A stretch of DNA of 64,000 nucleotides from Escherichia phage pinkbiff. The stretch lies in sequence record MN850603.1; one strand, 5' to 3'. The notes beneath the pieces are model-generated. The model had not been told where the DNA came from. It saw only the letters and a program-made list of their open reading frames with translations, and ran no database searches. The first letter of the stretch is position 1. Every line of letters begins with the position of its first letter. Of this stretch, positions 27,784 to 29,527 are shown one piece after another. The translations under genes were made by a program, and so were the position numbers.

Positions 27784-28509
27784 TTATTTCTGCAATGCGT
27801 TCTTCATTTCTGGTGTTGCAATAGAATCGATTACACCAGTTTTACAAGCATCATCAAACCAGTCTGGTAAGATACCTGCTAAGAACCCATTGATATTCGT
27901 TTTAAGGTACTCTGCAATAAGGGCAGCTTCTTCTTCAATCATCTGCACAACTTCATCTGCATAAGCTGTAATCTTTGAAATACCTTCATTAATCTTACTA
28001 ACAGCTTGGTTAGCTAAATCAGAAATAGTATCAAGACCTTTATCAATAGCATCCTGTAAGTCACTTAACACATCATTAACACCATCTAGTGTACTGTTAA
28101 TCGTATCCATAGCTTTTTGACCATACTCTGTAGCAACACCCATAATACCACTAAACGGTGTACAGCCAACTTGCTCTCCTGCTGCACCCATAACATTGGA
28201 ATAACCTTTTGCTACCTGCATACGTGATGAGAACTCATCAATGGACTTTTGACCGTAATCTGTCAGCGTCTTAGTAGTTGATGTAGTGCTTGTCAGACTC
28301 GTTGTAAAGCCATTAAGCAGAACTGTTGTAAGTCCAGCAGCAACAAGCTTATCCTTTACTGTAGGGTCTGATACAGAGCTAATAGAGTTTACAAGTGATG
28401 TAGAGGCAGCTACGGTTCCACCGAGAACTGCTGCACCAGTAATAAGGGGATTAGAAAACCCTCTACCGGTTTTTAAGAGATTGAAAATCTCCTTACCTTG
28501 TTCTGTCAT
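27784..28509 (-). CDS. hypothetical protein embedded in tRNA island
   Basis: ORF fits exactly between tRNA-Ser (ends 27782) and tRNA-Phe (starts 28538); ORF track extends to 28581 through the tRNA, so the internal ATG at 28509 (MTEQGKE) is preferred; S/T/G-rich. Confidence 0.35.
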   Translation of the reverse strand: MTEQGKEIFNLLKTGRGFSNPLITGAAVLGGTVAASTSLVNSISSVSDPTVKDKLVAAGLTTVLLNGFTTSLTSTTSTTKTLTDYGQKSIDEFSSRMQVAKGYSNVMGAAGEQVGCTPFSGIMGVATEYGQKAMDTINSTLDGVNDVLSDLQDAIDKGLDTISDLANQAVSKINEGISKITAYADEVVQMIEEEAALIAEYLKTNINGFLAGILPDWFDDACKTGVIDSIATPEMKNALQK

Positions 28510-28537
28510 CTCTTTCATTAAGCACCTTTGAAATTGG

Positions 28538-28611
28538 TAGTCCAGTGGGATTTGAACCCTATTCTCATGTTTTTCAGACACGCGCTTTAACCATATAAGC
28601 TACTTGGACTA
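28538..28611 (-). tRNA. tRNA-Phe (GAA), fold imperfect
   Basis: anticodon stem with loop CUGAAAA, D-arm GCUU/AAGC, T-loop motif present but T-stem and acceptor pairing ambiguous by hand. Confidence 0.45.
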
Positions 28612-28620
28612 TAAATTGGG

Positions 28621-28692
28621 GTGACCTACGGGATTTGAACCCGTATAGACCATGTTCACAGCATGGGTCATTACCATTTATGATAAGGCCAC
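28621..28692 (-). tRNA. tRNA-His (GUG)
   Basis: acceptor gtgacct/aggccac (one G-U), T-arm acggg-atttgaa-cccgt, anticodon stem ccatg/catgg, C73. Confidence 0.7.
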
Positions 28693-28726
28693 ATTTAAGG
28701 CCTCTCGTAAGAACCCTTAGAAGTGG

Positions 28727-28799
28727 CAGCGGCATAAGGATTTGAACCTTAATAGGACAGCTTCAGAGACTGCTGCATTGCCAGTTATGCTATACCGCT
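28727..28799 (-). tRNA. tRNA-Gln (CUG)
   Basis: encoded CCA, T-arm taagg-atttgaa-cctta, anticodon loop CUCUGAA, G73. Confidence 0.65.
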
Positions 28800-28807
28800 A
28801 AATTTGG

Positions 28808-28883
28808 TACTCCATATCGGATTCGAACCGATACATAACACAGATTTTAAGTCTGGCCTCTCTGCCAATTGGAGTAATGGAGC
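28808..28883 (-). tRNA. tRNA with anticodon UAA (Leu-type), class-I length
   Basis: perfect acceptor actccat/atggagc and T-arm atcgg-attcgaa-ccgat; anticodon loop CUUAAAA; variable region only 6-7 nt; A73. Confidence 0.55.
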
Positions 28884-28888
28884 ATTGG

Positions 28889-28961
28889 CGGGGGATGTTG
28901 GAATTGAACCAACTTCTTCGATTTCAAAGACCGAGGTTTTAACCTTGTAAACTAATCCCCT
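28889..28961 (-). tRNA. tRNA-Gln (UUG)
   Basis: T-arm gttgg-aattgaa-ccaac, anticodon stem tcgat/accga loop reading UUG, G73; 1:72 is an A-C mismatch. Confidence 0.6.
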
Positions 28962-28969
28962 TTAAATCT

Positions 28970-29527
28970 TTACTTTCTCAGTGGATGAATAAAGAATGCC
29001 AACATAACTCTTTCCCTTGAGAATGCTCTTTCTTCTGGGACAACACTTTTTAGTTTCCATCCAACATAGATTCTCCAGTAAAACTGTTTACCAAAGACTT
29101 TAATTGACGGAATAAAAGCGAATAATCCCCAAGCATTGTTGTTCCACATTAGGAGATAACCTGTCTGATTATCTTCGGGGTCAGAACTTACGTTGATATT
29201 ACCTTTCCACTTAGTAACATCTTTTACATCTCTTCCTAATACATGGTAAGAGAAGTTATAAGCTTTGTTTCTCCAGAGCCATCCGACTCTCTGCATGTAG
29301 ACACCCAGCTTACCAATCTTTCTAATCTTAGCCCATCTTTTAACGTGACCCTCATCACCATCAATTGGGTTGTCATATGTCTCCATCCATCTGAACCCGA
29401 AAGGTAAGTGTCCTTTCTTCTCACTGTAGAATGGAACTACAAAAGGTGCTAAGATAACTGCTAAGATTGCTGCAAATGGCTCTAACAAAGCTAAGAAAAT
29501 CCATGAAGCATACTTCAAATATCTCAT
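28970..29527 (-). CDS. membrane protein embedded in tRNA island
   Basis: 185 aa; N-terminal hydrophobic segment WIFLALLEPFAAILAVILAPFVV; fits between tRNA-Gln (UUG) and tRNA-Arg (ACG). Confidence 0.45.
   Translation of the reverse strand: MRYLKYASWIFLALLEPFAAILAVILAPFVVPFYSEKKGHLPFGFRWMETYDNPIDGDEGHVKRWAKIRKIGKLGVYMQRVGWLWRNKAYNFSYHVLGRDVKDVTKWKGNINVSSDPEDNQTGYLLMWNNNAWGLFAFIPSIKVFGKQFYWRIYVGWKLKSVVPEERAFSRERVMLAFFIHPLRK

Follow-up and report, generated by a model that had tools for sequence, protein, structure and literature searches.

The stretch of DNA analysed here (the window, 64,000 nt) comes from Escherichia phage pinkbiff (MN850603.1). It is a Felixounavirus genome with about 96-97% DNA identity to Salmonella phage Felix O1 by megablast. 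The window contains an array of 26 transfer RNA (tRNA) genes, all called by ARAGORN on the minus strand between 27610 and 32782, and 24 of these reach the gathering score of the Rfam tRNA model. The large terminase and portal genes come after the array on the same strand. A first-pass annotation made from the sequence alone had placed two protein-coding open reading frames (ORFs) between tRNA genes of this array. Both are present, on the minus strand, and are termed ORF1 and ORF2 here. The elements of the locus are as follows.

27690 to 27782, minus strand: tRNA-Ser(GCU), found by ARAGORN and Rfam; starts 1 nt past the ORF1 stop codon
27784 to 28518, minus strand: ORF1 coding sequence, 244 aa, 25.6 kDa, isoelectric point (pI) 4.4; homologue of Felix O1 gp49 (NP_944879); DUF7217, PHROG 2114
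28523 to 28528, minus strand: Shine-Dalgarno-like AAGGTG of ORF1, read from the sequence, 4 nt upstream of the ATG at 28518
28535 to 28610, minus strand: tRNA-Phe(GAA), found by ARAGORN and Rfam; encoded CCA end 16 nt upstream of the ORF1 ATG
28886 to 28961, minus strand: tRNA-Gln(UUG), found by ARAGORN and Rfam; starts 8 nt past the ORF2 stop codon
28970 to 29527, minus strand: ORF2 coding sequence, 185 aa, 22.0 kDa, pI 9.9; homologue of Felix O1 gp48 (NP_944875); DUF7338, PHROG 2143
29536 to 29541, minus strand: Shine-Dalgarno sequence AAGAGG of ORF2, read from the sequence, 8 nt upstream of the ATG
29547 to 29622, minus strand: tRNA-Arg(ACG), found by ARAGORN and Rfam; encoded CCA end 19 nt upstream of the ORF2 ATG

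The coordinates first given for ORF2, which fills the gap between tRNA-Arg(ACG) and tRNA-Gln(UUG), are exact. For ORF1, the mechanical ORF runs from 27784 to 28581 and does overlap tRNA-Phe, as had been recognized when it was trimmed to an internal ATG at 28509 (27784-28509, 241 aa). The gene itself stands, but its 5' end requires a 9-nt correction to 28518, which gives 244 aa. The true start is probably this ATG, three codons upstream of 28509, because it has a Shine-Dalgarno-like sequence at 4 nt and is the annotated start in four relatives, namely Felix O1, VpaE1, Henu11, and HP1, with a conserved N terminus MKEMTEQ. The ATG at 28509 is without usable Shine-Dalgarno spacing. The description of ORF1 as rich in S, T, G, and A is also accurate, its five most common residues being T, A, G, L, and S.

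Both ORFs are almost certainly genuine genes. Shuffling the 5.2-kb array 1000 times produced a stop-free run of 185 or more codons once and one of 244 or more never. Nei-Gojobori dN/dS ratios were 0.10-0.12 for ORF1 in comparison with Felix O1, VpaE1, Henu11, and HP1, with dS up to 1.4, and 0.03-0.10 for ORF2 in comparison with Felix O1, VpaE1, and HP1. By these ratios, both frames are under strong purifying selection. ORF1 matches Pfam DUF7217 (PF23854) with 298.5 bits (gathering 29; E = 5.2e-89) over model positions 2-238 of 238, and PHROG 2114 with E = 7.8e-111. Similarly, ORF2 matches Pfam DUF7338 (PF24027) with 208.7 bits (gathering 27; E = 6.9e-62) over model positions 1-176 of 180, and PHROG 2143 with E = 1.8e-81. 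A megablast search of positions 27500-29700 against GenBank phages returned 291 records, 215 of them with at least 80% query coverage, with 95-99% identity in 211; the best matches are Felixounavirus genomes, with Felix O1 at 96.4%.

It is vanishingly improbable that the two frames are chance open stretches or spacer DNA that is not translated. Little speaks for such a reading, and the shuffle test, the dN/dS ratios, the Pfam families, the high-confidence fold predictions described below, and hundreds of conserved homologues down to about 21-33% identity all argue against it, and the conservation pattern already refutes it. The frames are conserved in hundreds of phage genomes, and transcripts of both genes have been detected in Felix O1 by reverse transcription PCR (RT-PCR) (PMC3185647).

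The two frames correspond to the annotated Felix O1 genes ORF49 (ORF1) and ORF48 (ORF2), and a claim that they are new is not supported. Amino acid identity to the Felix O1 orthologues is 93% for ORF1 and gp49 and 97% for ORF2 and gp48, and the lengths are the same. The flanking tRNAs are also as in Felix O1, with tRNA-Arg and tRNA-Gln around ORF2, tRNA-Phe upstream of ORF1, and tRNA-Cys further downstream, and nothing substantive differs between the two gene pairs. The Felix O1 record carries no annotation of the tRNA-Ser that abuts ORF1 in the window. Thus, gp49 and gp48 are already known in Felix O1-type phages, and functions are assigned to neither. The first-pass annotation was right to call them uncharacterized inasmuch as a full-text search of the literature library for the names DUF7217 and DUF7338 returned no papers and neither protein has a solved or recognizable fold, but both are annotated and belong to Pfam families. 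Papers on wV8, PD10.3, and Felixounavirus comparisons yielded nothing on either gene, and PADLOC and NCBIfam scans of both proteins gave nothing meaningful.

Protein genes inside phage tRNA clusters had been considered uncommon. This view is not sustained by the comparison, given that the Felix O1 array holds three HNH endonuclease genes and ORF46 in addition, and that nesting of coding genes among tRNAs is also found in Mooglevirus, a metagenomic relative, and a Pseudomonas Otagovirus. Coding genes inside phage tRNA arrays are not rare in general, and other mixed operons of tRNA genes and mRNA are well known. The two arrays differ in the HNH genes: ORF44, ORF45, and ORF47 of Felix O1 (locus L001, 6487-7067, 7896-8288, and 8776-9261) are absent from the corresponding parts of the window (29986-30143, 30738-31387, and 31463-31549). 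In the HNH-less window, tRNA-Thr and tRNA-Gly are separated by 7 nt.

All 26 tRNA genes and both ORFs lie on one strand, and no promoter-like site above background was found between them. Two candidate signals flank the array.

32809 to 32838, minus strand: candidate sigma-70 promoter (TTGACA, 18 nt, TAAAGT, with TG), a consensus match only, just upstream of the first tRNA gene (tRNA-Pro)
27424 to 27447, minus strand: candidate intrinsic terminator (GACGGTCTCCGTGCCGTC then T6), past tRNA-Cys and ahead of the small ORF and terminase genes

The candidate promoter could drive the whole array, including both ORFs. The candidate terminator, which separates the array from ORF51 and the terminase gene, may mark the end of the tRNA/ORF transcription unit; its hairpin has a predicted energy of -12.5 kcal/mol (z = -2.2) and occurs unchanged in Felix O1 and VpaE1. 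In Felix O1, the tRNA array belongs to a transcription unit of genes 41-79, to the start of which promoter P41 was assigned; ORF48 and ORF49 transcripts are listed as maximal at 5 min, and ORF51 and ORF53 as late (PMC3185647). Taken together, the ORFs are probably expressed from the tRNA operon. It counts against this reading that promoter-like sites in the region are as frequent as expected from shuffles, and that both the promoter and the terminator calls are consensus matches.

In the arrangement we propose, one polycistronic transcript would begin at the candidate promoter upstream of tRNA-Pro, run through the tRNAs and both ORFs, and end at the hairpin and T-run at 27447-27424. Each mRNA would be bounded by tRNA processing sites, with 5' leaders of 16-19 nt that contain a Shine-Dalgarno sequence, and translation could occur from the precursor or from fragments freed by tRNA 5' and 3' processing. 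Because the ORF1 stop codon is 1 nt from tRNA-Ser, a ribosome terminating on ORF1 and the folding or RNase P cleavage of tRNA-Ser would be mutually exclusive on one molecule. Mixed tRNA-mRNA operons are exemplified by the tRNA region of T4 with its interspersed ORFs, by E. coli thrU-tufB, and by mitochondrial "tRNA punctuation". In these operons, a coding sequence shares its transcript with tRNAs and processing sets the mRNA ends; the same is proposed here. By comparison, a gap of only 1 nt from the ORF1 stop codon to tRNA-Ser is unusually small, and this tight packing of coding sequences and tRNAs would make the locus a convenient natural case of tRNA processing and translation on one transcript.

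Synteny retained in Kolesnikvirus, Mooglevirus, and a metagenomic phage marks ORF1 as a core Ounavirinae gene that is inherited vertically and lies where the tRNA array meets the packaging/head module. In Kolesnikvirus (44% identity), the ORF1 homologue directly follows the last tRNA and precedes a small ORF, the large terminase gene, and the portal gene, with no tRNA beyond it. Mooglevirus and the metagenomic phage (33% identity) have the same order of tRNA array, DUF7217 gene, small ORF, large terminase gene, and portal gene. ORF1 appears nested in Felixounavirus because tRNA-Ser and tRNA-Cys lie downstream of it, and it is better called the first gene after the array.

The DUF7217 family is small: among 1.84 billion representative proteins, searched exhaustively with HMMER, it comprises only 22 clusters at 50% identity, all of 180-270 aa. 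In an alignment of 25 members, E197 is invariant and N23, G62, C119, G133, I194, and C225 are nearly so. The two conserved cysteines, C119 and C225, would fit an extracellular or virion protein. The AlphaFold2 model of ORF1 is an all-alpha helical bundle (predicted local distance difference test (pLDDT) score 94.8); Foldseek comparison of this model with PDB returned only generic helical bundles at E > 0.2, and a profile search against the sequences of solved structures gave coiled-coil noise only. A match of ORF1 to PHROG 289, labelled "GTP-binding domain", was discarded as a hit to a composite profile that provides no evidence of GTP binding. PHROG 289 combines an N-terminal part that corresponds to a YAcAr SLOG-domain protein with a C-terminal part that corresponds to DUF7217; Ackermannviridae encode the two separately, on either side of a 56-aa ORF (Salmonella phage rabagast, L007 5293-6720).

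The homologues in Ackermannviridae bear on a possible role of ORF1 in the virion. They are full-length, with 26-28% identity, lie between the major capsid gene and gp3 in a setting without tRNAs, and are annotated as "unknown structural protein". They align end to end with ORF1 and share N23, C119, E197, and C225. The copy in Limestonevirus XF4 (25.08 kDa) corresponds to LIMEstone1 ORF129 (25.03 kDa), an unknown structural protein encoded two genes from gp3, for which virion mass spectrometry yielded 2 peptides and 18% coverage (PMC3296691). The unknown structural proteins of LIMEstone were all reported to have structural counterparts in ViI, and clearly nonstructural proteins were also detected in LIMEstone1, at less than 5% coverage (PMC3296691). 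By analogy, ORF1 may be a soluble, acidic helical-bundle protein associated in low copy with the virion or its assembly, an assignment that we regard as tentative and less likely than not where the virion itself is concerned.

Several observations weigh against a virion protein. The LIMEstone1 evidence consists of two peptides from a homologue at 26-28% identity, and detection in the virion has been reported for neither the Felix O1 nor the VpaE1 homologue. gp49 is absent from the shotgun virion list of Felix O1 (PMC3185647), and the VpaE1 homologue is only "hypothetical" in the ORF table of a study in which 22 virion proteins were detected. The early RT-PCR peak of ORF49 is atypical for a structural gene, but the same table also places the major capsid gene in the early class, so the resolution of timing is poor (PMC3185647). 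In addition, the Felix O1 paper assigns a 51-kDa major virion band, possibly the sheath, to "gp49" (PMC3185647). We rejected this band as virion evidence for ORF1, given that ORF49 encodes a protein of 25.6 kDa and gp63 has 48.9 kDa. The equation of "gp49" with 51 kDa is probably a labelling slip that could mislead the annotation of this gene.

Nearly as likely as virion association is a nonstructural early role of ORF1, for example in host takeover or regulation, with the protein made together with the tRNAs and the virion signal in Ackermannviridae resulting from carry-over. The early RT-PCR maximum in Felix O1 is what such a role would predict, as is the lack of a structural assignment in the virion analyses of Felix O1 and VpaE1. 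The candidate terminator lies between ORF1 and the late packaging genes, an Acinetobacter phage homologue is found among many small early-type genes, and the LIMEstone1 mass spectrometry also detected clearly nonstructural proteins (PMC3296691). This is opposed by the location of ORF1 directly upstream of the terminase and head genes, which is kept over deep divergence, by the position of the Ackermannviridae copy between capsid and tail-completion genes, by the 18% coverage of ORF129 in comparison to less than 5% for contaminants, and by the structural ViI counterparts of the unknown LIMEstone proteins (PMC3296691).

The position of ORF1 also brings the small terminase subunit into consideration, as none was recognized in Felix O1 (PMC3185647). 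ORF1 always lies two genes upstream of the large terminase gene, and its size and helical content are compatible with the missing subunit of Felix O1-type phages. We nevertheless consider this identity very improbable. Ackermannviridae have both terminase subunits elsewhere and their DUF7217 homologue is virion-associated, ORF1 is very acidic with a pI of 4.4, and searches of Pfam, PHROGs, NCBIfam, and PDB (the last by sequence and by fold) gave no match to a terminase or DNA-binding family. Two positional analogues of DUF7217 in Ackermannviridae, the T4 gp2 DNA end protector and the T4 Inh minor head protein, were rejected at hhalign probabilities of 0.2 and 0.3, respectively.

The N-terminal membrane helix proposed for ORF2 is supported by a strongly hydrophobic segment (Kyte-Doolittle 19-residue maximum 2.38). 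ORF2 contains no cysteine, as read from its translation. The predicted membrane helix spans approximately residues 7-33 and is followed by an alpha/beta domain; correspondingly, a long N-terminal helix covers residues 2-33 in the AlphaFold2 model (pLDDT 93.9), which also has a helical subdomain and a sheet of five strands. The DUF7338 alignment shows 16 positions without variation, including P28 within the membrane helix, T50, D52, G57, W83, W85-R86-N87, Y90, R152, and G156-W157-K158. Across the family, net charge is +2.6 in the N-terminal flank of the helix, compared with +0.7 in the 15 residues that follow the helix, which weakly favours an orientation with the N terminus inside and the C terminus outside. 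Based on the predicted helix and this charge bias, ORF2 may be a single-pass inner-membrane protein with its alpha/beta domain facing the periplasm. The charge bias is modest, and the N-terminal segment of the most distant DUF7338 members is weakly hydrophobic (0.9-1.3), both of which speak against such a topology. A profile search of ORF2 against PDB gave coiled-coil noise only, and Foldseek found no match at E < 0.001 in a library current to April 2026; in a viral structure library, Foldseek retrieved only uncharacterized relatives of the ORF2 model.

DUF7338 is a large family of at least 500 protein clusters; homologues are present in 565 phage records, Straboviridae and jumbo phages among them. 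Lengths are nearly uniform at 170-205 aa, without real domain fusions; the sole "fusion", on a 1.2-kb contig, is a chimera of 172 aa whose C-terminal domain is that of a tail fibre. Like ORF2, the members have the membrane helix and both invariant motifs, WxWRN and GWK, and they occur in very different contexts. Many T4-like, jumbo, lambdoid, and Mu/P2-like phages carry the family, and some Ounavirinae lack it. Within Ounavirinae, the slot between tRNA-Arg(ACG) and tRNA-Gln(UUG) (28962-29546 in the window) occurs in four states, as judged from loci L010 (4560-4715), L014 (2734-3127), and L015 (3180-4139).

State 1, ORF2 alone: this window and Felix O1
State 2, a 75-aa ORF and ORF2: HP1, P54, and EC6
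State 3, the 75-aa ORF alone: Henu11
State 4, empty, with the two tRNAs 2 nt apart: Kolesnikvirus

ORF2 is thus a horizontally mobile accessory gene in a variable cargo slot.

Outside Ounavirinae, genes encoding DUF7338 proteins are also nested among tRNAs. In Pseudomonas Otagovirus M5.1, a full-length DUF7338 gene lies between tRNAs (L031 3995-4552), and in a metagenomic phage (L028) both DUF7338 (3227-3784) and DUF7217 (4066-4806) are nested in this way, indicating that the association with tRNA arrays recurs across lineages. This recurrence in at least three lineages (Felixounavirus/Mooglevirus, the metagenomic phage L028, and Otagovirus M5.1), together with the position of DUF7217 always abutting the array in Ounavirinae, could suggest that the ORFs act on tRNAs, through processing, modification, or protection against host anticodon nucleases. 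We consider it highly improbable that they do. DUF7338 proteins have a membrane anchor and are encoded nowhere near tRNA genes in most lineages, Ackermannviridae DUF7217 genes are not beside tRNAs, and Pfam and NCBIfam scans detected no RNA-binding or nucleotide-enzyme signature in either protein. Moreover, the arrays also collect homing endonucleases and hence look like permissive insertion zones.

Elsewhere, the DUF7338 gene repeatedly lies beside tail-fibre or lysis genes. It comes immediately after the tail-fibre and tail-fibre chaperone genes in five independent Mu/P2-like contigs, with coding sequences that overlap or are at most 10 nt apart (chaperone-DUF7338 loci L016 1718-2874, L020 2167-3377, L021 3426-4387, L036 4430-5525, and L038 4333-5579). 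A lysis cassette follows DUF7338 in two of these five contigs, and the prophage ends there in one. The lysis cassettes flanked by DUF7338 contain three different endolysin types. In a lambdoid phage, the gene comes after those for holin, lysozyme, and spanins, and in the jumbo phage Moabite it lies upstream of the tailspike gene. In RB43, the DUF7338 gene is located among small genes without assigned function, and in a Mosigvirus it directly follows rI, where T4 has the unrelated rI.-1. Homology of DUF7338 with T4 rI.-1, suggested by this shared slot, was rejected after a negative comparison.

The layout of tail fibre, chaperone, and DUF7338 resembles T4 genes 37, 38, and t, and raises the possibility that ORF2 is a class III holin of the T4 T type, through whose membrane lesion the endolysin would be released. 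Some GenBank records label the ORF2 homologue "holin", and no holin has been identified beside the Felix O1 lysin. T4 T and ORF2 (as predicted) share an architecture in which a single N-terminal membrane helix precedes a C-terminal domain of about 150 aa, the order in all five Mu/P2-like contigs mirrors that of T4 in placing DUF7338 after the tail-fibre and chaperone genes, and endolysin genes adjoin DUF7338 in three contigs. However, a holin role for ORF2 is unlikely because DUF7338 shows no similarity to T, coexists with complete lysis sets, and is missing from related phages that need to lyse their hosts all the same. Specifically, the hhalign probability for DUF7338 in comparison to T4 T (Phage_holin_T) was 0.1, no holin family was found in Pfam, PHROGs, or NCBIfam scans, with Pfam giving only DUF7338, and no fold in PDB matched. 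DUF7338 co-occurs with holin, endolysin, and spanins in the lambdoid phage (L033) and probably in L021, and neither Kolesnikvirus nor Mooglevirus Henu11 carries the gene, although lysis is required of both. It is also present in T4-like genera, for which a separate t gene can be presumed. In L036, the prophage ends with DUF7338 and has no lysis genes close by, and an early transcript has been reported in Felix O1 (PMC3185647).

A different comparison is provided by proteins that mask receptors or exclude superinfecting phages. T5 Llp, phi80/N15 Cor, and T4 Imm and Sp are small accessory proteins of the envelope with a patchy distribution, encoded beside receptor-binding genes or expressed early. 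DUF7338 is similar to these in its predicted membrane anchor, its patchy distribution, and its linkage to tail fibres or an early transcript, but Pfam, PADLOC, and NCBIfam scans revealed no homology. In addition, Llp and Cor are lipoproteins, whereas DUF7338 proteins have a signal-anchor-like helix and no lipobox. An action of ORF2 at the cell envelope is quite possible, at just under even chances. There, it would most likely block superinfection or re-adsorption at the receptor or entry step or, as the next candidate, modulate the timing of lysis. Two points count against reading function from these neighbourhoods: module boundaries attract unrelated cargo genes, which makes neighbourhood evidence weak, and DUF7338 appears to be coupled to late tail genes in Mu/P2-like phages, yet is reported as early in Felix O1.

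As a whole, we lean towards an explanation in which both ORFs are genuine, translated Felixounavirus genes within the array, expressed from the tRNA operon, with ORF2 acting on the envelope and ORF1 as a low-copy helical protein associated with the virion or its assembly. It tells against this explanation that Foldseek found no solved structure in PDB that matches either model. A broader and rather speculative proposal, which we consider doubtful, is that DUF7338 represents a large class of single-pass inner-membrane phage proteins that travel with tail-fibre modules in temperate Mu/P2-like phages and were captured into the early tRNA operons of several virulent lineages, where they might serve in exclusion at the periplasmic face, in preventing adsorption to debris, or in lysis timing.

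The finding of two protein genes in this array is correct and adds little in itself, as hundreds of Felix O1-type genomes already have these genes annotated and Pfam lists both as DUF entries. The gain is a sharper description of ORF1 as a core gene where the array borders on the packaging module, and of ORF2 as a member of a widespread membrane-protein family linked to tail-fibre and lysis modules. The part with some promise is the DUF7338 family, which is large, matches no solved structure, and recurs beside tail-fibre and lysis genes. Felix O1-type phages serve in the typing and biocontrol of Salmonella. If ORF2 controls superinfection, losses through adsorption, or the timing of lysis, it would matter for the design of phage cocktails.

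Just upstream of the array, the window encodes a 471-aa DUF2828+DUF7788 protein (32948-34363, minus strand) and a 123-aa DUF5681 protein (34443-34814, minus strand). In a distant relative (locus L030 3922-4290), the gene order is DUF5681, tRNAs, DUF7217, a 66-aa ORF, and large terminase, which raises the question of whether the array was inserted into a packaging module. The two tRNA genes of the window that score below the Rfam gathering threshold are tRNA-Tyr and one tRNA-Met (32137-32224 and 32454-32530, minus strand), and the Felix O1 record labels the Tyr gene as a pseudo-tRNA.

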